A stretch of DNA of 64,000 nt from Escherichia coli. GTDB lineage: Bacteria > Pseudomonadota > Gammaproteobacteria > Enterobacterales > Enterobacteriaceae. Below, in pieces: positions 1-31,365 of this stretch. The stretch lies in assembly GCF_003334305.1 (NCBI RefSeq), contig NZ_QOWS01000002.1; one strand, given 5' to 3'. The notes under the pieces were generated by a model. The model had not been told where the DNA came from and searched no databases. It was given only the letters and a program-made list of their open reading frames with translations. How positions within the stretch are numbered: the stretch's first letter is position 1; each line of letters opens with the position of its first letter. The position numbers and the translations under genes were made by a program.

Positions 1-64
1 GTGGCGGCCTCAGTCCGGAACAATTTGAAAACAAGAACCTCGCTTAGGCCTGTGTCCATATTAC

Positions 65-1244
65 GTGGGTAGGATCAATAAGAGTGGTTTGTTTTCAATG
101 GACAGAGTCATTCTTGATGACGTTCTATATTCATTGAGCCTACGATACAGAGTGAATCTATCAGAAAACGTAGTTGAAAAATTTATTGAAAGCGATAGCA
201 AAGAGAAGGTTGAACATCTCAGGAAGGAAATTGCTAGGTTTATCAGGTTTGCTAAAGAAAACTTTGATCTTATCCGTGGAGAGTTTATCGTTTTTGTACG
301 AAGAGAATCCTCTATTAAAGATTCGGAGAGAGCTAATGGAATTTTAGAAGATAACTCTGATACTAATTTCCTATTTCGATATCTCCCCCCTAATATTGCC
401 CGTCTGTATGAAAATAGACTATCCGTACAGAATATAGAACGTCTGGGCAATACAAATAAAATTCGGTTGTTAAACAGAAATGTTTTAACGAATGAAATTA
501 TGTTGAAAATTAAAGACTGCGAAAGCACGTATACAAATGGATATATGTATCAATATATAAATAATGCCATTGATAATGATGATGGCACCATATCTATGGA
601 AATTGTCATGGGAAAGCATAGCGGAAAAAAGTTATGAACGGTGGGTGCAGGGAGCAAAAAATCGTACAGTTCTCTTTCATTATAAAAACATTATTACTGA
701 TCTTAACCAAGCGCATTCATGCAGAGCGTCCCTGGGCGCATATTGCCCATTTCATGGAGAAATTCTTCGTAAACTGGATCAAAGGAATGAAGTTCAGAGG
801 GTTAAACTCTCTATTGACGTTCCATTTCTAGAGGGGCTTACTCCAAGTGAACTCTACAAAATTAGAACTGACTACGAATCGAGTTTTAATGCCTTCCGCT
901 CTGTGCTACGTGAAGCTGCGTATGACATAGAAGCAGAAAGTGACCCATATAAGAGGTAGCTGATAAATCAGCATTTTGTCGAGCGCATATGGGATGAAGG
1001 ATTGACCGATATTGAGCAAAAAATACAGACCTATAAGCGGAAAAGTAATAAAGAACTTTTTCTTAACATTGCGCCATCATTGATAGGTTTTATTGGGGCA
1101 CCAAATCCAGTGTCGTTGGCTACAGGAGCCTTTACGATTCTAAAAGAGGTTTTTAATATAACAAGCCACTCTTCAGAAATAAAGAGTCACCCTTCATATT
1201 TCCTTCTCATGACGTCAAAAGGCAAAAATAAATTTTATGACTGA
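65..1244 (+). pseudogene. Low-GC decayed coding region of unknown function: three collinear ORF segments (65-637; 564-959; 1002-1244)
   Basis: Segments 1 and 2 overlap by 74 nt in different frames near A-runs at ~620-660. Segments 2 and 3 share a frame and are separated only by one TAG at 957-959. Track starts at 65 and 1002 are GTG/TTG. Visibly AT-rich compared with flanking DNA. No recognisable motif. Confidence 0.3.
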
Positions 1245-1330
1245 AGCAGTAGAAAATATTGTGAAAATATATTCACTTAAGCAAAAAGGTTGAGGGGCTG
1301 CCGGATCTGTTATTAACGGGGAGCTAATTA

Positions 1331-1358
1331 CTTTGCCGAGTAAAGCAACTCGGCAAAG
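1331..1358. terminator. Perfect 11-bp stem / 6-nt loop hairpin between convergent genes
   Basis: CTTTGCCGAGT-AAAGCA-ACTCGGCAAAG. No clear U-tract on either strand. Confidence 0.3.
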
Positions 1359-1380
1359 TAGCATAGACTTGAGTGAATTA

Positions 1381-1899
1381 TTAGATTTTAACTAGTTCGC
1401 TAGTCTCTACTGAAGCTCTCAAATTAATGGCAGGCTCCTGTGAGCCAACTCGGTATGTGTAAGACTGAGGGTGATCTCTGGCAATGTCAATGAGATCGAT
1501 TAGAGCCTCAGTTGCTCTCAGAGCTTCATTTGGAAGTTCTCGAGGCTCGAAGCTACTGAGTGTGCCGGGCTTCATATGTGCAATCTGCTCATGCCTAATC
1601 TTTAATACTGGTTCTGCGAGTGCAAGGAACTTTTCAGCTGCCAATTTCACAGCCTCTGGTGAAGCAGAATACGAGCCGCGTTTCAAAAACATTGATACAG
1701 ATCTCACATCTTTCCTTTTATCCGCAAGACGCGCTAAACGGATCACCAACATTTCCAACAATGCATTGAGGGCTACCAACTGATTGGCAAGCTCATATCT
1801 TGTACTGCTATTAGTAAGGCCTTCCATCAACCGCTGATACGTATAGATGGTTGTTAGGATATGCCATGCTTCTGCTTCCATTTCTTCAAGAATCGTCAT
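1381..1899 (-). CDS. Hypothetical 172-aa protein; possible HEPN-like R-x5-H motif (KIRHEQIAH)
   Basis: Clean ORF, convergent with the upstream decayed ORFs. AT-rich promoter-like region 1900-2217 is shared divergently with the GTPase gene. Family assignment is inference only. Confidence 0.5.
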   Translation of the reverse strand: MTILEEMEAEAWHILTTIYTYQRLMEGLTNSSTRYELANQLVALNALLEMLVIRLARLADKRKDVRSVSMFLKRGSYSASPEAVKLAAEKFLALAEPVLKIRHEQIAHMKPGTLSSFEPRELPNEALRATEALIDLIDIARDHPQSYTYRVGSQEPAINLRASVETSELVKI

Positions 1900-2253
1900 A
1901 AATACTCCACAATGGTCTGATAGTTATCATGCAGATATCTAAATAACCAATTTAAACTAATTTTATAATTCAACACGTAGCACATGATACTGAATCACTA
2001 CGTATAAATTAGATACTTTAGGATTTTATTTGGACAAGCCCGCCCCGGAAGACAATTCTACCTTAGTGTATATAAGGACCGCTTATGGCACAGAGCGGAC
2101 TGTCAGATGAGGTTTAGTTCTGTACTAATGAGCCGATACAAATTAGCTGCATATACCTGCATTCCAAATAATTTTAGGCAGATATTATCTCCGTGAGTCC
2201 CCTGCCACCTTTCCGGTGTGCGGGGTTTTGTCTTTTTCACCGGGAATACATGT

Positions 2254-3126
2254 ATGAATCCGTCTGATGCCATTGAGGCAATTGAAAAACCGCTCTCCTC
2301 CCTGCCTTACTCGCTTTCCCGTCACATCCTGGAACATCTGCGCAAACTCACCAGTCACGAACCCGTGATTGGCATTATGGGTAAAAGCGGGGCCGGTAAA
2401 TCCTCACTCTGTAATGCACTGTTTCAGGGGGAGGTCACCCCGGTCAGTGATGTTCACGCCGGCACCCGAGAAGTACGGCGCTTCCGTCTGAGTGGCCATG
2501 GTCACAGCATGGTTATCACTGACCTGCCCGGGGTGGGCGAGAGCCGGGACAGGGATGCAGAGTATGAAGCCCTGTACCGTGACATTCTGCCTGAACTTGA
2601 CCTGGTACTGTGGCTGATTAAAGCCGATGACCGTGCCCTGTCTGTGGATGAGTATTTCTGGCGACACATCCTGCACCGGGGACATCAGCAGGTGCTGTTT
2701 GTGGTGACGCAGGCCGACAAAACGGAGCCCTGCCATGAATGGGATATGGCCGGCATTCAGCCTTCTCCCGCACAGGCACAGAACATTCGGGAGAAAACGG
2801 AGGCGGTATTCCGTCTGTTCCGGCCCGTACGTCCGGTTGTTGCCGTATCGGCCCGCACCGGCTGGGAACTGGATACGCTGGTCAGTGCGCTAATGACAGC
2901 ACTTCCCGACCATGCCGCCAGTCCCCTGATGACCCGCCTGCAGGACGAGCTGCGCACGGAATCTGTCCGCGCTCAGGCCCGTGAACAGTTTACCGGTGCG
3001 GTGGATCGGATATTTGACACGGCGGAGAGCGTCTGTGTTGCCTCTGTTGCCCGTACGGTTCTGCGTGCCGTCCGTGACACGGTGGTCTCTGTTGCCCGCG
3101 CTGTATGGAACTGGATTTTCTTCTGA
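2254..3126 (+). CDS. yeeP: YeeP/YkfA-family P-loop GTPase
   Basis: Walker A GKSGAGKSS near the N-terminus; recognised as the GTPase that precedes flu in CP4-44-like islands. Start moved to ATG 2254 (MNPSDAIEAIEK); track ORF begins at GTG 2218. Confidence 0.8.
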   Translation: MNPSDAIEAIEKPLSSLPYSLSRHILEHLRKLTSHEPVIGIMGKSGAGKSSLCNALFQGEVTPVSDVHAGTREVRRFRLSGHGHSMVITDLPGVGESRDRDAEYEALYRDILPELDLVLWLIKADDRALSVDEYFWRHILHRGHQQVLFVVTQADKTEPCHEWDMAGIQPSPAQAQNIREKTEAVFRLFRPVRPVVAVSARTGWELDTLVSALMTALPDHAASPLMTRLQDELRTESVRAQAREQFTGAVDRIFDTAESVCVASVARTVLRAVRDTVVSVARAVWNWIFF

Positions 3127-3244
3127 ACAGTCTGCCAGGGAAATGCCTGATAACATTACGTTAACCAACTGAAAACATGACACAAACCCCTCATACTCCT
3201 CCTGTTTCTCTTGCGTGACCGCCTTGTCGTTAATAGAATAAAAC

Positions 3245-3280
3245 GATCGATAAAACAGGTATCGATCGTTACTATCGATC
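3245..3280 (+). promoter_or_regulatory. Three clustered GATC sites upstream of flu: candidate Dam/OxyR phase-variation switch of agn43
   Basis: GATC at 3245, 3264 and 3277, ~220-250 bp upstream of the flu start codon, matching the known agn43 arrangement. Confidence 0.6.
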
Positions 3281-3497
3281 ATTTATAGTGGTTAATGGTC
3301 TGCGAAAAGGCAGCTGAATCTCTTCATCATGCAGAACGGAATTGCACACAACGGACTGATACTTCTCTGGCGGATGAGAGAGGGGAAGCATTTATGTCCG
3401 GGAAAAACCACTTTATCTGACCATGCTGTTTTGTACCTGCCGGTATCCACTTTTGTGGGTACCGGCTTTTTTATTCACCCTCTGTAAGGAAAAGCTG

Positions 3498-6344
3498 ATG
3501 AAACGACATCTGAACACCAGCTACAGGCTGGTATGGAATCACATTACGGGCACCCTGGTGGTGGCTTCCGAACTGGCCCGCTCACGGGGAAAACGCGCCG
3601 GTGTGGCGGTTGTGCTGTCTCTTGCTGCTGTCACATCAGTCCCGGCACTGGCTGCTGACACGGTTGTACAGGCGGGAGAAACCGTGAACGGCGGAACACT
3701 GACAAATCATGACAACCAGATTGTTCTCGGTACGGCCAACGGAATGACCATCAGTACCGGTCTGGAGTATGGGCCGGATAACGAGGCCAATACCGGCGGG
3801 CAATGGATACAAAATGGCGGTATCGCCAACAACACTACTGTCACCGGTGGTGGTCTTCAGAGAGTGAATGCCGGAGGAAGCGTTTCAGACACGGTTATCA
3901 GTGCCGGAGGCGGACAGAGCCTTCAGGGGCAGGCAGTGAATACCACTCTGAACGGCGGTGAGCAGTGGGTACATGAAGGCGGGATTGCAACGGGTACCGT
4001 CATTAATGAGAAGGGCTGGCAGGCCGTCAAATCCGGCGCAATGGCAACCGACACGGTTGTGAATACCGGCGCGGAAGGGGGACCGGATGCAGAAAATGGT
4101 GATACCGGGCAGTTTGTTCGCGGAAATGCCGTACGTACCACTATCAATGAAAATGGTCGTCAGATTGTGGCTGCTGAAGGAACGGCAAATACCACTGTGG
4201 TTTATGCCGGCGGCGACCAGACTGTACATGGTCACGCACTGGATACCACGCTGAATGGGGGGTACCAGTATGTGCACAACGGCGGTACGGCGTCTGGCAC
4301 TGTTGTAAACAGTGACGGCTGGCAGATTATCAAGGAAGGTGGTCTGGCGGATTTCACCACCGTTAACCAGAAAGGCAAACTGCAGGTGAACGCCGGTGGT
4401 ACCGCCACACATGTCACCCTGAAACAGGGTGGAGCACTGGTTACCAGTACTGCAGCAACGGTTCTTGGCAGCAACCGTCTGGGCAATTTCGCGGTGGAAA
4501 ACGGTAAGGCTGACGGCGTTGTTCTGGAGTCCGGTGGTCGCCTGGATGTACTGGAGGGCCATTCAGCCTGGAAAACACTGGTGGATGACGGCGGTACCCT
4601 GGCAGTGTCTGCCGGTGGTAAGGCAACAGATGTCACCATGACATCCGGTGGTGCCCTGATTGCAGACAGTGGTGCCACTGTTGAGGGGACCAATGCCAGC
4701 GGTAAGTTCAGTATTGATGGCACATCCGGTCAGGCCAGCGGACTGCTGCTGGAAAATGGCGGCAGCTTTACGGTTAATGCCGGGGGACAGGCCAGCAACA
4801 CCACTGTCGGACATCGTGGAACACTGATGCTGGCTGCCGGGGGAAGTCTGAGTGGCAGAACACAGCTCAGTAAAGGCGCCAGCATGGTACTGAATGGTGA
4901 TGTGGTCAGTACCGGCGATATTGTTAACGCAGGGGAGATTTACTTTGACAATCAGACAACACCGGATGCCGTACTGAGCCGTGCTGTTGCAAAAGGCAAC
5001 GCCCCGGTAACGTTCCATAAACTGACAACCAGTAACCTCACCGGTCAGGGTGGCACCATCAATATGCGTGTTAGCCTTGATGGCAGTAATGCCTCTGACC
5101 AGCTGGTGATTAATGGTGGTCAGGCAACCGGCAAAACCTGGCTTGCGTTTACAAATGTCGGAAACAGTAACCTCGGGGTGGCAACCTCCGGACAGGGTAT
5201 CCGGGTTGTGGATGCACAGAATGGTGCCACCACAGAAGAAGGTGCATTTGCCCTGAGTCGCCCGCTTCAGGCCGGCGCCTTTAACTACACCCTGAACCGT
5301 GACAGCGATGAAGACTGGTACCTGCGCAGTGAAAATGCTTATCGTGCTGAAGTCCCCCTGTATGCCTCCATGCTGACACAGGCAATGGACTATGACCGGA
5401 TTCTGGCAGGCTCCCGCAGCCATCAGACCAGTGTAAGCGGTGAAAATAACAGCGTCCGTCTCAGCATTCAGGGCGGTCATCTCGGTCACGATAACAACGG
5501 CGGTATTGCCCGTGGAGCCACGCCGGAAAGCAGCGGCAGCTATGGCTTCGTCCGTCTGGAGGGTGACCTGCTCAGAACAGAGGTTGCCGGTATGTCTCTG
5601 ACGACAGGGGTGTATGGTGCTGCAGGCCATTCTTCCGTTGATGTTAAGGATGATGACGGTTCCCGCGCCGGCACGGTCCGGGATGATGCCGGCAGCCTGG
5701 GCGGATACCTGAATCTGACACACACGTCCTCCGGCCTGTGGGCTGACATTGTGGCACAGGGAACCCGCCACAGCATGAAAGCGTCATCGGACAATAACGA
5801 CTTCCGCGCCCGGGGCTGGGGCTGGCTGGGCTCACTGGAAACCGGTCTGCCCTTCAGTATCACTGACAACCTGATGCTGGAGCCACAACTGCAGTATACC
5901 TGGCAGGGACTTTCCCTGGATGACGGCCAGGATAACGCCGGTTATGTGAAGTTCGGGCATGGCAGTGCACAACATGTGCGTGCCGGTTTCCGTCTGGGCA
6001 GCCACCACGATATGACCTTTGGTGAAGGCACCTCATCCCGTGACACCCTGCGCGACAGTACAAAACACGGTGTGAGTGAACTGCCTGTGAACTGGTGGGT
6101 ACAGCCTTCTGTTATCCGCACCTTCAGCTCCCGGGGAGACATGAGCATGGGTACAGCCGCAGCCGGCAGTAACATGACGTTCTCACCGTCCCAGAATGGC
6201 ACGTCACTGGACCTGCAGGCCGGACTGGAAGCCCGTGTCCGGGAAAATATCACCCTGGGCGTTCAGGCCGGTTATGCCAACAGTGTCAGCGGCAACAGCG
6301 CTGAAGGCTATAACGGTCAGGCCACGCTGAATGTGACCTTCTGA
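3498..6344 (+). CDS. flu: Antigen 43 self-associating autotransporter adhesin
   Basis: N-terminus MKRHLNTSYRLVWNHITG with extended signal peptide, repetitive G/T/N-rich passenger, conserved C-terminal beta-barrel ending in F. Start placed at ATG 3498; 948 aa. Confidence 0.9.
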   Translation: MKRHLNTSYRLVWNHITGTLVVASELARSRGKRAGVAVVLSLAAVTSVPALAADTVVQAGETVNGGTLTNHDNQIVLGTANGMTISTGLEYGPDNEANTGGQWIQNGGIANNTTVTGGGLQRVNAGGSVSDTVISAGGGQSLQGQAVNTTLNGGEQWVHEGGIATGTVINEKGWQAVKSGAMATDTVVNTGAEGGPDAENGDTGQFVRGNAVRTTINENGRQIVAAEGTANTTVVYAGGDQTVHGHALDTTLNGGYQYVHNGGTASGTVVNSDGWQIIKEGGLADFTTVNQKGKLQVNAGGTATHVTLKQGGALVTSTAATVLGSNRLGNFAVENGKADGVVLESGGRLDVLEGHSAWKTLVDDGGTLAVSAGGKATDVTMTSGGALIADSGATVEGTNASGKFSIDGTSGQASGLLLENGGSFTVNAGGQASNTTVGHRGTLMLAAGGSLSGRTQLSKGASMVLNGDVVSTGDIVNAGEIYFDNQTTPDAVLSRAVAKGNAPVTFHKLTTSNLTGQGGTINMRVSLDGSNASDQLVINGGQATGKTWLAFTNVGNSNLGVATSGQGIRVVDAQNGATTEEGAFALSRPLQAGAFNYTLNRDSDEDWYLRSENAYRAEVPLYASMLTQAMDYDRILAGSRSHQTSVSGENNSVRLSIQGGHLGHDNNGGIARGATPESSGSYGFVRLEGDLLRTEVAGMSLTTGVYGAAGHSSVDVKDDDGSRAGTVRDDAGSLGGYLNLTHTSSGLWADIVAQGTRHSMKASSDNNDFRARGWGWLGSLETGLPFSITDNLMLEPQLQYTWQGLSLDDGQDNAGYVKFGHGSAQHVRAGFRLGSHHDMTFGEGTSSRDTLRDSTKHGVSELPVNWWVQPSVIRTFSSRGDMSMGTAAAGSNMTFSPSQNGTSLDLQAGLEARVRENITLGVQAGYANSVSGNSAEGYNGQATLNVTF

Positions 6345-6364
6345 CAGAACCATCGCCTCTTTGT

Positions 6365-6389
6365 GGTCCCGATCATCATGATCGGGACC
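6365..6389 (+). terminator. Palindromic hairpin just after the flu stop
   Basis: GGTCCCGATCAT-C-ATGATCGGGACC, contains two GATC sites; no strong U-tract. Confidence 0.35.
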
Positions 6390-6458
6390 CGGACCGGCGC
6401 AACGGATATTCAACGCCACATTCGCTGGCATTAACAATAACATGATATTCATCACGGA

Positions 6459-8981
6459 GTGACTATGTTACAGATAGTCGGCGCGCTGATCCTGCTGATA
6501 GCAGGATTTGCCATTCTTCGCCTTTTGTTCAGAGCATTAATCAGCACGGCTTCTGCGCTGGCAGGGCTTATATTGCTGTGTCTGTTCGGCCCGGCCTTAC
6601 TGGCTGGCTATATCATCGAACGCATAACCCGGTTGTTCCATATTCGCTGGCTGGCAGGCGTATTTCTGACGATTGCCGGAATGATCATCAGCCTCATGTG
6701 GGGACTTGATGGTAAACATATCGCGCTGGAGGCTCACACCTTTGACTCTGTGAAATTTATTCTGACCACCGCTCTCGCCGGTGGTCTGCTGGCTGTTCCC
6801 CTGCAGATCAAAAACATTCAGCAGAACGGGATCACACCAGAAGATATCAGCAAGGAAATTAACGGGTATTACTGCTGTTTTTATACTACCTTTTTCCTTA
6901 TGGCGTGTTCTGCATGCGCACCATTGATCGCGTTACAGTACGATATTTCACCGTCACTGATGTGGTGGGGCGGGTTGTTGTACTGGCTGGCTGCATTAGT
7001 GACGCTGCTATGGGCGGCCAGCCAAATCCAGGCGCTGAAAAAACTGACCTGTGCCATCAGCCAGACACTGGAAGAACAACCGGTGCTCAACAGTAAATCG
7101 TGGCAGACCAGTTTGCAAAACGATTACAGCCTTCCTGACTCACTGACGGAGCGCATCTGGCTGACGCTCATTTCTCAACGGATTTCCCGGGGAGAGCTGA
7201 GGGAATTTGAACTGGCAGACGGAAACTGGTTACTGAACAATGCCTGGTATGAAAGAAACATGGCAGGGTTTAACGAACAGTTGAAAGAGAACCTGTCATT
7301 CACACCTGATGAACTGAAAACGCTCTTCCGGAACCGCCTGAATTTATCACCGGAAGCGAATGACGATTTTCTCGATCGTTGCCTGGACGGCGGTGACTGG
7401 TATCCGTTTTCAGAAGGTCGCCGTTTTGTATCATTCCACCACGTGGATGAGCTTCGTGTCTGTGCCTCCTGCGGGCTGACAGAAGTACATCATGCCCCGG
7501 AAAATCATAAGCCGGATCCGGAATGGTACTGCTCCTCTCTTTGTCGCGAAACAGAAATACTGTGTCAGGAAATTTATGAACGCCCTTACAACTGTTTTAT
7601 TTCCGATGCAACGGCGAATGGTCTGATTCTCATGAAACTGCCGGAAACCTGGAGTACAAATGAGAAAATGTTTGCTTCCGGAGGGCAGGGACATGGGTTT
7701 GCCGCTGAACGGGGAAACCATATTGTCGACAGAGTCCGTCTGAAAAACGCACGGATCCTCGGTGATAATAATGCCAGAAATGGAGCAGACAGACTGGTCA
7801 GCGGAACAGAAATCCAGACGAAATATTGTTCAACTGCAGCCCGTAGCGTCGGTGCGGCATTCGACGGACAAAACGGACAGTATCGTTACATGGGAAATAA
7901 TGGCCCCATGCAACTGGAAGTCCCCCGTGATCAGTATGCCGGCGCTGTTGAAACTATGAGGAATAAGATCCGCGAAGGTAAAGTACCCGGTGTAACCGAT
8001 CCCGCAGAAGCGTCCCGGCTGATTCGTCGGGGACATCTGACTTATACCCAGGCCCGTAATATCACCCGGTTCGGGACCATCGAATCGGTCACTTATGATA
8101 TTGCCGAGGGTTCGGTTGTCAGTCTGGCGGCCGGAGGGATCAGTTTTGCCCTGACGGCATCGGTCTTCTGGCTCAGCACTGGCGATCGCGATGCTGCCCT
8201 GCAGACAGCTGCTGTCCAGGCAGGAAAAACCTTCACCCGCACACTGGCTGTCTACGTCACAACCCAGCAACTTCACCGGCTCAGTGTTGTTCAGGGTATG
8301 CTGAAGCACATTGATTTTTCGACTGCCAGCCCGACTGTCCGACTGGCTCTTCAGAAGGGGACTGGTGCAGGAAATATCAGTGCCCTGAACAAAGTAATGA
8401 AGGGTACGCTGGTGACATCTCTGGCACTGGTAGCTGTCACAACCGGCCCTGACATGATCAAAATGTTGCGGGGACGGATCTCCGGTGCGCAGTTCATCAG
8501 GAATCTTGCCGTGGCATCTTCCGGTGTGGCAGGTGGAGCTGTCGGGTCAGTGGCGGGCGGGATACTGTTCAGTCCACTGGGACCATTTGGTGCACTGACA
8601 GGGCGTGTGGTTGGCGGTGTTCTGGGGGGAATGATTGCCTCCGCTGTATCAGGAAAAATTGCCGGAGCGCTGGTTGAAGAAGATCGCGTCAAAATTCTGG
8701 CAATGATTCAGGAGCAGGTGACATGGCTTGCCGGCAGTTTCCTGCTGACCGGACATGAGATTGAAAATCTGAACGAGAATCTGGCCCGTGTTATCGATCA
8801 GAATGCTCTGGAGATCATTTTCGCCGCCGGTATACAACAACGGGCCGCGACCAATATGTTAATCAAACCACTAGTGGTCAGTATCATCAGGCAACGCCCC
8901 GTCATGGAATATGATGCATCCCATCTCGGCAATATGGTTAACCGACTGGAAGAAGCATTCCCCCCGGAGCTCCCGGCATAA
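6459..8981 (+). CDS. yeeR: YeeR-family inner membrane protein, 840 aa
   Basis: Hydrophobic N- and C-terminal segments; recognised as the gene following flu in CP4-44-type islands. Confidence 0.75.
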   Translation: MTMLQIVGALILLIAGFAILRLLFRALISTASALAGLILLCLFGPALLAGYIIERITRLFHIRWLAGVFLTIAGMIISLMWGLDGKHIALEAHTFDSVKFILTTALAGGLLAVPLQIKNIQQNGITPEDISKEINGYYCCFYTTFFLMACSACAPLIALQYDISPSLMWWGGLLYWLAALVTLLWAASQIQALKKLTCAISQTLEEQPVLNSKSWQTSLQNDYSLPDSLTERIWLTLISQRISRGELREFELADGNWLLNNAWYERNMAGFNEQLKENLSFTPDELKTLFRNRLNLSPEANDDFLDRCLDGGDWYPFSEGRRFVSFHHVDELRVCASCGLTEVHHAPENHKPDPEWYCSSLCRETEILCQEIYERPYNCFISDATANGLILMKLPETWSTNEKMFASGGQGHGFAAERGNHIVDRVRLKNARILGDNNARNGADRLVSGTEIQTKYCSTAARSVGAAFDGQNGQYRYMGNNGPMQLEVPRDQYAGAVETMRNKIREGKVPGVTDPAEASRLIRRGHLTYTQARNITRFGTIESVTYDIAEGSVVSLAAGGISFALTASVFWLSTGDRDAALQTAAVQAGKTFTRTLAVYVTTQQLHRLSVVQGMLKHIDFSTASPTVRLALQKGTGAGNISALNKVMKGTLVTSLALVAVTTGPDMIKMLRGRISGAQFIRNLAVASSGVAGGAVGSVAGGILFSPLGPFGALTGRVVGGVLGGMIASAVSGKIAGALVEEDRVKILAMIQEQVTWLAGSFLLTGHEIENLNENLARVIDQNALEIIFAAGIQQRAATNMLIKPLVVSIIRQRPVMEYDASHLGNMVNRLEEAFPPELPA

Positions 8982-9056
8982 CGTGTGTTCTGCTCCTTTT
9001 AGGTTTTATCACCTGATTTGCCAGTGTCATCGTCATGACTCAGAGAGGTAAATACC

Positions 9057-9293
9057 ATGATTCACCTGTTCAAAACCTGCATTATTACTGGCGTCATTCT
9101 GGGGTTAACGTGGTCTGCCCCACTCCGGGCACAGGATCAACGTTACATCGGTATACGCAATACAGATACGATATGGCTCCCGGGAAATATTTGTGCTTAC
9201 CAGTTCCGGCTGGATAATGGCGGAAACGGTGAAGGATTTGGCCCCTCACCATCACTCTGCAACTCAAAGACAAATATGGTCAGACGCTGGTGA
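9057..9293 (+). CDS. Small hypothetical secreted protein (78 aa) with N-terminal signal peptide
   Basis: MIHLFKTCIITGVILGLTWSAPLRAQ signal-like N-terminus; AGAGAGG ribosome-binding site upstream. Confidence 0.4.
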   Translation: MIHLFKTCIITGVILGLTWSAPLRAQDQRYIGIRNTDTIWLPGNICAYQFRLDNGGNGEGFGPSPSLCNSKTNMVRRW

Positions 9294-9511
9294 CCAGAAA
9301 AATGGAAACGGAAGCTTTTGGTGACAGTAATGCCACGCGAACCACAGACGCATTTCTGGAAACGGAGTGCGTGGAAAATGTCGCCACAACCGAAATCATT
9401 AAAGCAACTGAAGAAAGTAACGGCCATCGTGTCAGTCTGCCGTTATCGGTTTTCGATCCCCAGGACTACCATCCACTGCTAATTACCGTTTCCGGAAAAA
9501 ACGTTAACTGA
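9290..9511 (+). CDS. Small hypothetical protein (73 aa)
   Basis: ORF overlapping the previous stop (GTGA); alternative ATG at 9302; weak ribosome-binding site. Confidence 0.25.
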   Translation: MTRKMETEAFGDSNATRTTDAFLETECVENVATTEIIKATEESNGHRVSLPLSVFDPQDYHPLLITVSGKNVN

Positions 9512-9536
9512 TCCCTGAAGTCAGTTTCATGCTTCA

Positions 9537-9572
9537 GCCTCTGTCACAACGCGTGGCAGAGGCTTTTTATTT
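9537..9572 (+). terminator. Rho-independent terminator-like hairpin with T-run
   Basis: GCCTCTG...CAGAGGC stem followed by TTTTTATTTAT. Confidence 0.5.
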
Positions 9573-9589
9573 ATCAGGAGAAAACAGAT

Positions 9590-9823
9590 ATGCCGGGTTA
9601 CACAGAGTATGTCCTGGCTGAAGGATCTTTCTCATACGGGCAGGCGGTTGCTGTCATAACAGCTTACCGCAATGTGTTTATCCAGGATGACCCGGGAATG
9701 CATTTCCGTCGGATTATCCGCAACACGGAAGGTCAGCGACGCTGGCGCTGCCGGAATTCTGAACCCGATGCCGGAAAGGTGCTTAATACGCGGCTCGCCA
9801 GTGACGGTCTTCTCAGACAATAA
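9590..9823 (+). CDS. Small hypothetical protein (77 aa)
   Basis: AGGAG ribosome-binding site 9 nt upstream of the ATG; flanked by two similar terminator-like hairpins. Confidence 0.4.
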
Positions 9824-9846
9824 ACGTCATTCATTTCACCCATCAG

Positions 9847-21058: not shown

Positions 21059-21811
21059 GATGAAACCCCGCTTTTTTTATTGATCGCACACCTGACAGCT
21101 GCCTCTAAAATAGAAGCACCAGAAGTACTGACAGATGTTGCACTGCTGTGTGTAGTAATAAATCAGCCCTAAATGGGTAAAATATAAAACTAATGGATTA
21201 CATCTGATTTCAATCTAGCCATTACAAATCTTAAATCAAGTGTTAAACATGTAACTAAATGTAACTCGTTATATTAAAATGTTAATCTTAAGGTTTTATT
21301 AAGTTTAGAAATGATAGAAAAGTTGTACATTTGGTTTTTATTGCACAATTTTAAAAAATCATACAAATGGTGATAACTTACTAATAATACATATAAAAAA
21401 TATTTCGGTGTAGTCCTTTCGTCATGTAAAACGTTCTTGTTTTTTCTCCGCACCTCCGTGGACAATTTTTTACTGCAAAAAGACGAGGTTTGTCACGGCT
21501 TGTGCGCAAGACATATCGCAGCAATCAGCGACGGGCAAGAAAAATGACTGTCTGGTGATTTTTGATAGCGGAAAACGGAGATTTAAAAGAAAACAAAATA
21601 TTTTTTGCGTAGATAACAGCGTATTTACGTGGGTTTTAATACTTTGGTATGAACAAAAAAAGAAAAATACAACGCGCGGGTGAGTTATTAAAAATATTTC
21701 CGCAGACATACTTTCCATCGTAACGCAGCGTTAACAAAATACAGGTTGCGTTAACAACCAAGTTGAAATGATTTAATTTCTTAAATGTACGACCAGGTCC
21801 AGGGTGACAAC
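21059..21811. promoter_or_regulatory. csgD-csgB divergent intergenic control region
   Basis: 753-bp AT-rich intergenic region between divergent csgDEFG and csgBAC; known to carry both promoters, many regulator sites and the csgD 5' UTR. Confidence 0.8.
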
Positions 21812-22267
21812 ATGAAAAACAAATTGTTATTTATGATGTTAACAATACTGGGTGCGCCTGGGATTGCAGCCGCAGCAGGTTATGATTTAGCTAATTCAGA
21901 ATATAACTTCGCGGTAAATGAATTGAGTAAGTCTTCATTTAATCAGGCAGCCATAATTGGTCAAGCTGGGACGAATAATAGTGCTCAGTTACGGCAGGGA
22001 GGCTCAAAACTTTTGGCGGTTGTTGCGCAAGAAGGTAGTAGCAACCGGGCAAAGATTGACCAGACAGGAGATTATAACCTTGCATATATTGATCAGGCGG
22101 GCAGTGCCAACGATGCCAGTATTTCGCAAGGTGCTTATGGTAATACTGCGATGATTATCCAGAAAGGTTCTGGTAATAAAGCAAATATTACACAGTATGG
22201 TACTCAAAAAACGGCAATTGTAGTGCAGAGACAGTCGCAAATGGCTATTCGCGTGACACAACGTTAA
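21812..22267 (+). CDS. csgB: Minor curlin nucleator CsgB
   Basis: Recognised sequence (MKNKLLFMMLTILGAPGIAAA...). Confidence 0.95.
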   Translation: MKNKLLFMMLTILGAPGIAAAAGYDLANSEYNFAVNELSKSSFNQAAIIGQAGTNNSAQLRQGGSKLLAVVAQEGSSNRAKIDQTGDYNLAYIDQAGSANDASISQGAYGNTAMIIQKGSGNKANITQYGTQKTAIVVQRQSQMAIRVTQR

Positions 22268-22307
22268 TTTCCATTCGACTTTTAAATCAATCCGATGGGG
22301 GTTTTAC

Positions 22308-22763
22308 ATGAAACTTTTAAAAGTAGCAGCAATTGCAGCAATCGTATTCTCCGGTAGCGCTCTGGCAGGTGTTGTTCCTCAGTACGGCGGCGGCGGTAAC
22401 CACGGTGGTGGCGGTAATAATAGCGGCCCAAATTCAGAGCTGAACATTTACCAGTACGGTGGCGGTAACTCTGCACTTGCTCTGCAAACTGATGCCCGTA
22501 ACTCTGACTTGACTATTACCCAGCATGGCGGTGGTAATGGTGCAGATGTAGGTCAGGGCTCAGATGACAGCTCAATCGATCTGACCCAACGTGGCTTCGG
22601 TAACAGCGCCACTCTTGATCAGTGGAACGGCAAAAATTCTGAAATGACTGTTAAACAGTTCGGTGGTGGCAACGGTGCTGCAGTTGACCAGACTGCATCT
22701 AACTCCTCCGTCAACGTGACTCAGGTTGGCTTTGGTAACAACGCGACCGCTCATCAGTACTAA
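22308..22763 (+). CDS. csgA: Major curlin subunit CsgA
   Basis: Gly/Asn/Gln-rich repeats; recognised sequence. Confidence 0.97.
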   Translation: MKLLKVAAIAAIVFSGSALAGVVPQYGGGGNHGGGGNNSGPNSELNIYQYGGGNSALALQTDARNSDLTITQHGGGNGADVGQGSDDSSIDLTQRGFGNSATLDQWNGKNSEMTVKQFGGGNGAAVDQTASNSSVNVTQVGFGNNATAHQY

Positions 22764-22784
22764 TACATCATTTGTATTACAGAA

Positions 22785-22809
22785 ACAGGGCGCAAGCCCT
22801 GTTTTTTTT
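22785..22809 (+). terminator. Rho-independent terminator after csgA
   Basis: ACAGGGC-GCAA-GCCCTGT followed by T8. Confidence 0.7.
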
Positions 22810-22821
22810 CGGGAGAAGAAT

Positions 22822-23585
<764 letters not shown>

Positions 23586-27083: not shown

Positions 27084-31266
<4,183 letters not shown>

Positions 31267-31278
31267 AAACGTAGTTGC

Positions 31279-31365
31279 CTGATGCGCTACGCTTATCAGG
31301 CCTACATCGCTCCTGCAATTTATTGATTTTGCAAGATTTTGTGGGTCGGATAAGGCGTTCACGCC
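31279..31365. repeat. REP/BIME palindromic units downstream of opgH
   Basis: GCCTGATGCGCTACGCTTATCAGGCCTAC and CGGATAAGGCGTTCACGCCGCATCCG units. Confidence 0.7.

Follow-up and report, generated by a model that had tools for sequence, protein, structure and literature searches.

The closest described system to the locus considered here is the regulatory region of agn43 in Escherichia coli K-12. When its GATC sites are unmethylated, OxyR represses the gene, and methylation abrogates OxyR binding. The competition between the two that follows replication gives rise to heritable ON and OFF states, with switching at about 10^-2 to 10^-3 per generation, and agn43 is locked OFF in a dam mutant and locked ON when Dam is overproduced (PMC4872104, PMC13337833, PMC3764049, PMC2909390). 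The promoters of both agn43 allelic groups carry three GATC sites at similar spacing (PMC2808357). The IS102 RNA is called IsrC, and its antitermination controls the expression of flu (Wallecha et al. 2014, cited in PMC5389530). Analysis of a 64-kb stretch of E. coli DNA (the window) revealed a comparable arrangement upstream of a flu gene. We conclude that an Ag43-family adhesin gene is very probably controlled here by a cis-regulatory switch that is homologous to the one through which Dam and OxyR bring about phase variation of agn43 in K-12.

The GATC cluster lies in a regulatory intergenic region of 371 bp, the upstream end of which is the stop codon of a yeeP-like gene. The features of the locus, numbered from the first base of the window, are as follows.

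2254-3126, plus strand: yeeP-like GTPase family gene (open reading frame list; RefSeq annotation of the 99.9%-identical locus, L002, at 11125-11997; weak matches to GTPase models of NCBIfam).
3211-3216, plus strand: putative -35 hexamer TTGCGT (read from the sequence and the K-12 alignment; K-12 has TTGTCC there).
3233-3247, plus strand: predicted OxyR half-site A, ATAGAATAAAACGAT (8/10), overlapping the -10 hexamer and GATC-I.
3234-3239, plus strand: putative -10 hexamer TAGAAT.
3242-3270, no strand: perfect 11-bp inverted repeat, AACGATCGATA / TATCGATCGTT (arms 3242-3252 and 3260-3270; from the sequence).
3243-3479, plus strand: agn43 leader RNA, Rfam RF00124 IS102 (= IsrC), found by cmscan with 64.8 bits (gathering score 46) and extending from roughly the predicted transcription start as far as the leader terminator.
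3245-3248, no strand: GATC-I, Dam target (read from the sequence).
3264-3267, no strand: GATC-II, Dam target (read from the sequence).
3265-3279, plus strand: predicted OxyR half-site B, ATCGTTACTATCGAT (8/10), spanning GATC-II to GATC-III.
3277-3280, no strand: GATC-III, Dam target (read from the sequence).
3439-3472, plus strand: intrinsic leader terminator (12-bp stem at 3439-3466, then six T at 3467-3472).
3498-6344, plus strand: flu/agn43 coding sequence, 948 aa, an Ag43/Cah family autotransporter (short allele, class C4-like).
15427-15514, minus strand: tRNA-Ser(GGA), serX-type (ARAGORN, the Rfam tRNA model and the annotation of a near-identical genome), marking where the island gives way to the ghrA-ycdXYZ-csg backbone.

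The start codon of flu is the ATG at 3498-3500, and not at 3499, with a Shine-Dalgarno sequence, AAGGA, at 3486-3490. This placement agrees with the RefSeq start in the near-identical genome, that of strain UMB200201_11, which is 99.9% identical over window positions 1-15500. As judged from its Pfam domains, the open reading frame is full-length and comprises an extended signal peptide, a passenger, a type 1 autochaperone and a β-barrel, with ESPR at residues 6-51, AIDA repeats, AC_1 at 497-599 and Autotransporter at 673-924. Among solved structures, the best relative is the Ag43-UTI89 crystal construct (PDB 7KO9), with which passenger residues 52-613 share about 97% identity. Ag43-UTI89 has been assigned to class C4 (Vo et al.).

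An earlier note on this DNA had reported three GATC sites within 36 bp, 220-250 bp before the start of flu, and both statements are borne out. The sites begin at 3245, 3264 and 3277, the 36-bp span 3245-3280 holds all three, and they lie 253, 234 and 221 nt upstream of the ATG at 3498. In an ungapped comparison, the start-to-start spacing of 19 and 13 nt is identical to that in K-12 MG1655 agn43, where the sites are at 1345, 1364 and 1377 of the sequence used (L001). A 13-nt operator gap in the first MAFFT pairwise alignment with K-12 was rejected as false, the ungapped comparison giving equal spacing. The raw number of such clusters is by itself unexceptional: the window contains 236 GATC sites in total, and two clusters of three within 36 bp were observed against an expectation of 0.9-1.5. 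The second cluster, which is tighter at 22 bp, is situated at 28164-28185 within the mdoG/opgG coding sequence and serves as a chance control; no OxyR half-site pair was found there. It is the K-12-identical spacing, the conservation among alleles and the possession of the sole OxyR half-site pair in the window that mark the cluster at 3245-3280 as non-random.

Candidate OxyR half-sites were scored as 15-nt units against ATAGnTnnnAnCTAT, which has 10 consensus positions. The centres of half-sites A and B are 32 bp apart, a spacing that is canonical for reduced OxyR (PMC4856963), and their offsets and 8/10 scores equal those in K-12. The half-site consensus is degenerate, and about 24 lone 8/10 half-sites occur in the 64 kb; apart from A and B, no two 8/10 half-sites in the window have their centres 32 bp apart, and shuffled sequences lead to an expectation of 0.013 such pairs. 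The position and the score of half-site A are the same in K-12, O157 cah, ATCC 25922, Citrobacter and Raoultella. Across the recovered operator copies, those from Citrobacter and Raoultella included, A and B score 8-9/10, the exception being half-site B of strain OkiPb01715 at 6/10, whereas the middle segment ranges from 1 to 6/10, with 2/10 in the window and 6/10 in K-12. Because A and B are constant across copies while the middle segment varies, we infer that A plus B constitute the functional OxyR site. Moreover, the centre of the inverted repeat, at 3256, coincides with the midpoint of the two half-sites, so that GATC-I and GATC-II are symmetrically disposed; the whole looks like a site for a dimer of dimers. 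With this agreement in GATC spacing and half-site offsets, the likeness to the agn43 Dam/OxyR arrangement proposed in the earlier note holds at the level of sequence.

A contiguous 37-nt OxyR consensus (ATAG-N7-CTAT-N7-ATAG-N7-CTAT) was also tried and was set aside as not discriminating, 14 sites in the window scoring at least 13/20. In the K-12 register it matches at 10/20 positions in the window and 14/20 in K-12. The lower value is explained by the segment between GATC-I and GATC-II, which reads GATAAAACAGG instead of the AATATCTATTT of K-12, the central CTAT being replaced.

The promoter hexamers were placed by alignment with K-12 and are separated by a spacer of 17 bp. The -35 block, TCTCTTGCGTGAC, is invariant among island-type alleles, and the -10 hexamer is the same in K-12 and in 9/10 island-type alleles. 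A consensus promoter scan was below threshold at the operator and reported no promoter, because the hexamers match at just 8/12 positions and the scanner needs 9/12; the putative -10 is overlapped by half-site A, and the Rfam leader model begins at 3243. The RF00124 match is full-length, extending over model positions 1-206 of 206 without truncation, and its score of 64.8 bits compares with 77 for O157 cah and 252.6 for the homologous place in K-12. Since the model begins 2 bases before GATC-I, the three GATC sites would fall within roughly the first 40 nt of a leader of about 255 nt and not upstream of the promoter; they are thus predicted to overlap the -10/start region and the beginning of the transcript. 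The terminator of the leader has a folding energy of -24.1 kcal/mol (z = -6.8) and is nearly invariant across alleles, K-12 included.

For the comparison of alleles, sequences were sampled from complete E. coli genomes by similarity over the whole 371-bp intergenic region, the presence of GATC not being a selection criterion. Three GATC sites at -253/-234/-221, or 1 nt closer to the ATG, were present in 9/9 other island-type alleles that keep the upstream region. Among ten island-type alleles including that of the window, 14 of the 63 operator columns are variable and none of these is among the 12 GATC columns; the associated P value of 0.035 is modest and comes from a small sample. At 3281, the base that follows GATC-III, the window has an A, in contrast to the G of all the other alleles sampled. 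This position falls outside the consensus positions of half-site B, and exact matches to the 63-nt operator of the window were found in 43 of 3265 records. The A at 3281 also creates a minus-strand ATG (3282-3280) at the head of a 130-aa open reading frame (2890-3282) that is probably spurious. We judged this reading frame, together with a minus-strand 'terminator' at 3270-3242, to be a by-product of the operator palindrome and the 3281A change.

Damaged copies do occur elsewhere, so that 'intact' is a meaningful description of the present one. In STEC2018-553, only the last 105 nt or so of the leader are left, an IS3 element having taken the place of all that lay further upstream, promoter and operator included. 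In PigCaeca_2, the upstream region is unrelated and without GATC. In the cah gene of OkiPb01715, a 13-bp deletion between tandem ATCGATCGTTTAT repeats has fused GATC-II with GATC-III, leaving two GATC sites and reducing half-site B to its score of 6/10; O157-type operators look liable to slippage at their perfect 13-bp tandem repeat. The search of IMG/VR returned one contig only, an E. coli island fragment in which the leader is cut at the equivalent of 3415. None of these defects is present in the window copy, in which all the cis elements visible in the sequence are found in the K-12 register. To that extent the contention of the earlier note that the island copy is intact, as opposed to a silent remnant, is supported.

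Of 5426 complete E. coli genomes, 3263 have the island-type operator, with up to 5 copies each and 4708 copies in total, and 1811 have the K-12-type regulatory region; the type represented in the window is therefore the commoner. The trans-acting genes dam and oxyR are each present in 5426/5426 complete E. coli genomes, UMB200201_11 among them, and neither is within the 64-kb window.

By analogy with K-12, the switch would operate as follows. A sigma-70 promoter, with its -35 at 3211-3216 and its -10 at 3234-3239, would start transcription at about 3243-3247. An OxyR tetramer bound to the half-sites at 3233-3247 and 3265-3279 would cover the -10, the start site and the first 37 nt or so of the transcript, blocking transcription (OFF) and shielding the three GATC sites from Dam. 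Should Dam act first, in the hemimethylated period after replication, OxyR binding would be prevented and the gene would be ON. Both states would be inherited, with switching at low frequency. Transcripts initiated in the ON state would cross the leader, of about 255 nt, where those stopping at 3439-3472 would give a short IsrC/IS102 RNA and those reading through the leader terminator would serve as flu mRNA for the 948-aa autotransporter. Phase variation itself at the window copy, in the sense of bimodal methylation and OxyR binding, is what this analogy leads us to expect; the experiments from which the mechanism is transferred used the K-12-type operator, and the central segment of that operator is different.

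That difference has a bearing on how the switch might behave. Because the island-type operator is without the central half-site, and because of the A at 3281 beside GATC-III, a homologous operator could support a switch unlike that of K-12, one that is locked or has a strong bias, whether mostly to OFF or mostly to ON, or that is insensitive to one form of OxyR. The middle half-site scores of 2/10 in the window and 6/10 in K-12 and the rarity of the change at 3281 would favour such behaviour, as would two precedents, the locking of opvAB by single-base changes in OxyR half-sites (PMC4856963) and the variation in switch frequency among gtr alleles of the same architecture (PMC2909390). We nevertheless consider it unlikely. 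The island-type operator is the majority type, in 3263 genomes against 1811, and shows tight conservation, both of which speak for its being functional; moreover, position 3281 is not a consensus position of half-site B, and A and B themselves are unchanged.

Two other readings deny the operator its role altogether. The notion that the three GATC sites are a chance cluster without regulatory function can draw on the raw count, with 0.9-1.5 such clusters expected per 64 kb and another within mdoG, but chance would have to account for a spacing identical to that in K-12, for conservation across alleles and genera, and for the coincidence of the cluster with the sole OxyR half-site pair, with the start of an Rfam-recognised leader and with a place directly upstream of an Ag43 gene. 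Homology and conservation effectively refute it, the non-significant raw count notwithstanding, and we give it next to no credence. Slightly more can be said for the idea that the palindromic, CGATCG-rich segment acts mainly as RNA, in the form of a 5' stem-loop stabilising the leader or mRNA, or as a SeqA-binding cluster, and is not an OxyR/Dam operator. In the predicted leader RNA, the inverted repeat at 3242-3270 folds into a 5' stem-loop: a hairpin of 10 bp made by the first 27 nt appears whether the minimum-energy or the centroid structure is taken. A stem over the region of GATC-II and GATC-III is likewise part of the Rfam IS102 model, and an ancillary effect of SeqA is mentioned in papers. 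The hairpin differs by allele, however, involving GATC-I and GATC-II in the window and GATC-II and GATC-III in the Rfam model. The half-sites in the DNA, by contrast, do not vary, and the genetics of K-12 credits the switch to Dam and OxyR. A role for the RNA is in any case compatible with an operator role and no replacement for it, and as an alternative to the operator this idea is very improbable. Overall, a Dam/OxyR operator homologous to that of K-12 agn43 is the reading that we favour.

The flu gene forms part of the usual module of such islands, in which the order is yeeP-like GTPase, flu, an 840-aa protein, an IrmA-family protein, DUF905, DUF932, antirestriction, RadC/JAB-like and CbeA/CbtA toxin-antitoxin. 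Beyond the tRNA come ghrA, ycdXYZ, the curli genes, mdoGH, pyrC, the flg operons and rne. Since the module ends at tRNA-Ser(GGA) with backbone genes beyond, this Ag43 gene is a serX island copy. In the near-identical genome, the island extends leftwards into IS3, IS1 and a fecIRABCD operon. Some 3-8 kb past the island boundary, at about 18700-23200, are the curli loci csgDEFG and csgBAC, a proximity that places two determinants of aggregation and biofilm formation next to each other.

Directly downstream of flu, an open reading frame at 6459-8981 on the plus strand encodes the 840-aa protein, annotated as hypothetical in RefSeq, with an N-terminal multipass membrane region, a Cys/His-rich centre and a glycine-rich C-terminal membrane segment. 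Searches of Pfam, NCBIfam and PHROGs gave no significant or informative match for this protein. In the backbone, all on the minus strand, Rfam matches were obtained to the rne 5' UTR element (62252-62588), the PyrC leader (40471-40520), the ES056 sRNA (21114-21205), located in the csgD-csgB intergenic region, and the ES036/CssrF sRNA (31298-31340).

A scan with the operator pattern that covered one genome per species brought to light the same arrangement outside E. coli. The triple-GATC/OxyR operator, in the TAATAGAAT -10 context and with the two half-sites of 8/10 each that it has in E. coli, is present in Citrobacter braakii ATCC 51113 (L017, 5109-5145, minus strand) and Citrobacter amalonaticus (L015, 941-977). 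The cargo that follows is known for C. braakii, the C. amalonaticus sequence ending short of the neighbouring genes. In C. braakii, the operator follows a yeeP-like GTPase gene, and 94 nt beyond it lies a gene whose product is not Ag43 but a secreted protein of 154 aa. No Pfam or NCBIfam match was found for this protein, and its only match was to phrog_5248, a PHROG of unknown function. Further downstream are the gene for a 157-aa secreted protein and then the usual DUF932, antirestriction and RadC genes. To judge from this gene order, the flu slot of C. braakii is occupied by different cargo under the same predicted operator.

The same operator architecture, with half-sites of 9/10 and 8/10, occurs in Raoultella ornithinolytica (L016, 5097-5133, plus strand) and Citrobacter werkmanii (L013, 7176-7212, minus strand), 60-100 nt upstream of genes for a variable membrane protein and a conserved secreted protein of 118-131 aa. 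In R. ornithinolytica, a type I CBASS pair on the same strand begins after a gap of 515 nt and consists of a 2TM effector (PDLC00712, 5.5e-72) and a cyclase (PDLC00769, 2.2e-116); in C. werkmanii, close homologues of this pair follow on the same strand as the operator. The unit in these two species may be a phase-variable one beside a defence system. No IS102 leader was detected at the Citrobacter and Raoultella operator loci.

On these comparisons the triple-GATC/OxyR cassette looks portable, and operators with and without the central CTAT can be told apart, the former being the K-12/Citrobacter type and the latter the majority island type of the window. A bolder proposal, possible but in our estimation short of probable, is that the cassette is a portable epigenetic switch with two subtypes that has recombined before unrelated cargo, that the island type, lacking the central CTAT, is perhaps bound only in the extended mode of reduced OxyR and perhaps switches with different kinetics, and that the A at 3281 perhaps shifts the ON/OFF bias.

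As an example of an intact Ag43 switch, the present locus is ordinary and very common, and the finding is already known, since the literature states that Ag43 alleles share this architecture: the genome paper on EAEC 042 says so, citing van der Woude and Henderson 2008 (PMC2808357). Nothing is added to the biology of the switch as such. For practical purposes, the sequence supports annotating the serX-island Ag43 copy as a functional, probably phase-variable adhesin gene, and a clonal culture should contain both aggregating and non-aggregating cells, a point that bears on studies of expression and of biofilms. The wider value lies in two observations, that the experimentally studied K-12-type operator is in the minority among complete genomes and that the same cassette precedes other genes in Citrobacter and Raoultella.

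Comparison of the window with K-12 agn43 reveals that the three GATC sites at 19/13 nt, the half-site offsets and 8/10 scores, and the TAGAAT -10 are shared, that the leader terminator and the ribosome-binding region are almost identical, and that a yeeP-like neighbour lies upstream and an Ag43 autotransporter downstream in each. The differences are that the leader in the window is 31 nt longer, with a middle part too diverged for megablast and the much lower Rfam score (64.8 against 252.6 bits), that the centre of the operator is GATAAAACAGG and not AATATCTATTT, and that the -35 is TTGCGT and not TTGTCC. The protein has 948 aa, whereas the K-12 gene, at 3120 bp, encodes about 1039 aa, and the window copy lies in the serX island and not at the K-12 flu locus, which we take to be the CP4-44 prophage. 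The window copy belongs to the allele family of the island-borne Ag43-UTI89 (c1139, class C4) and Cah of O157:H7 (z1211, class C2), the operator type and its position relative to the ATG being as in the window; the O157 cah regulatory region is 89.6% identical. The window is set apart from these two by the single G-to-A change at 3281, and the 13-bp tandem repeat over GATC-II and GATC-III that is perfect in O157 cah is imperfect here.

More distant parallels can be drawn with other methylation-dependent switches. In pap-type Lrp/Dam systems, too, a bound regulator blocks Dam and heritable methylation patterns result, but the regulator is Lrp with PapI, the two GATC boxes are 102 bp apart and the sequences are dissimilar (PMC2909390). 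The gtr operons of Salmonella (phage P22 and chromosomal) and opvAB share the principle: their GATC sites fall within OxyR half-sites, methylation competes with OxyR binding, and the half-sites are paired at a distance suited to reduced OxyR. They differ in that, upstream of the promoter, GATC is present four times and an OxyR half-site three or four times, with alternative activating and repressing positions for OxyR (PMC2909390), whereas the window has one predicted repressor site, overlapping the promoter and the start site.
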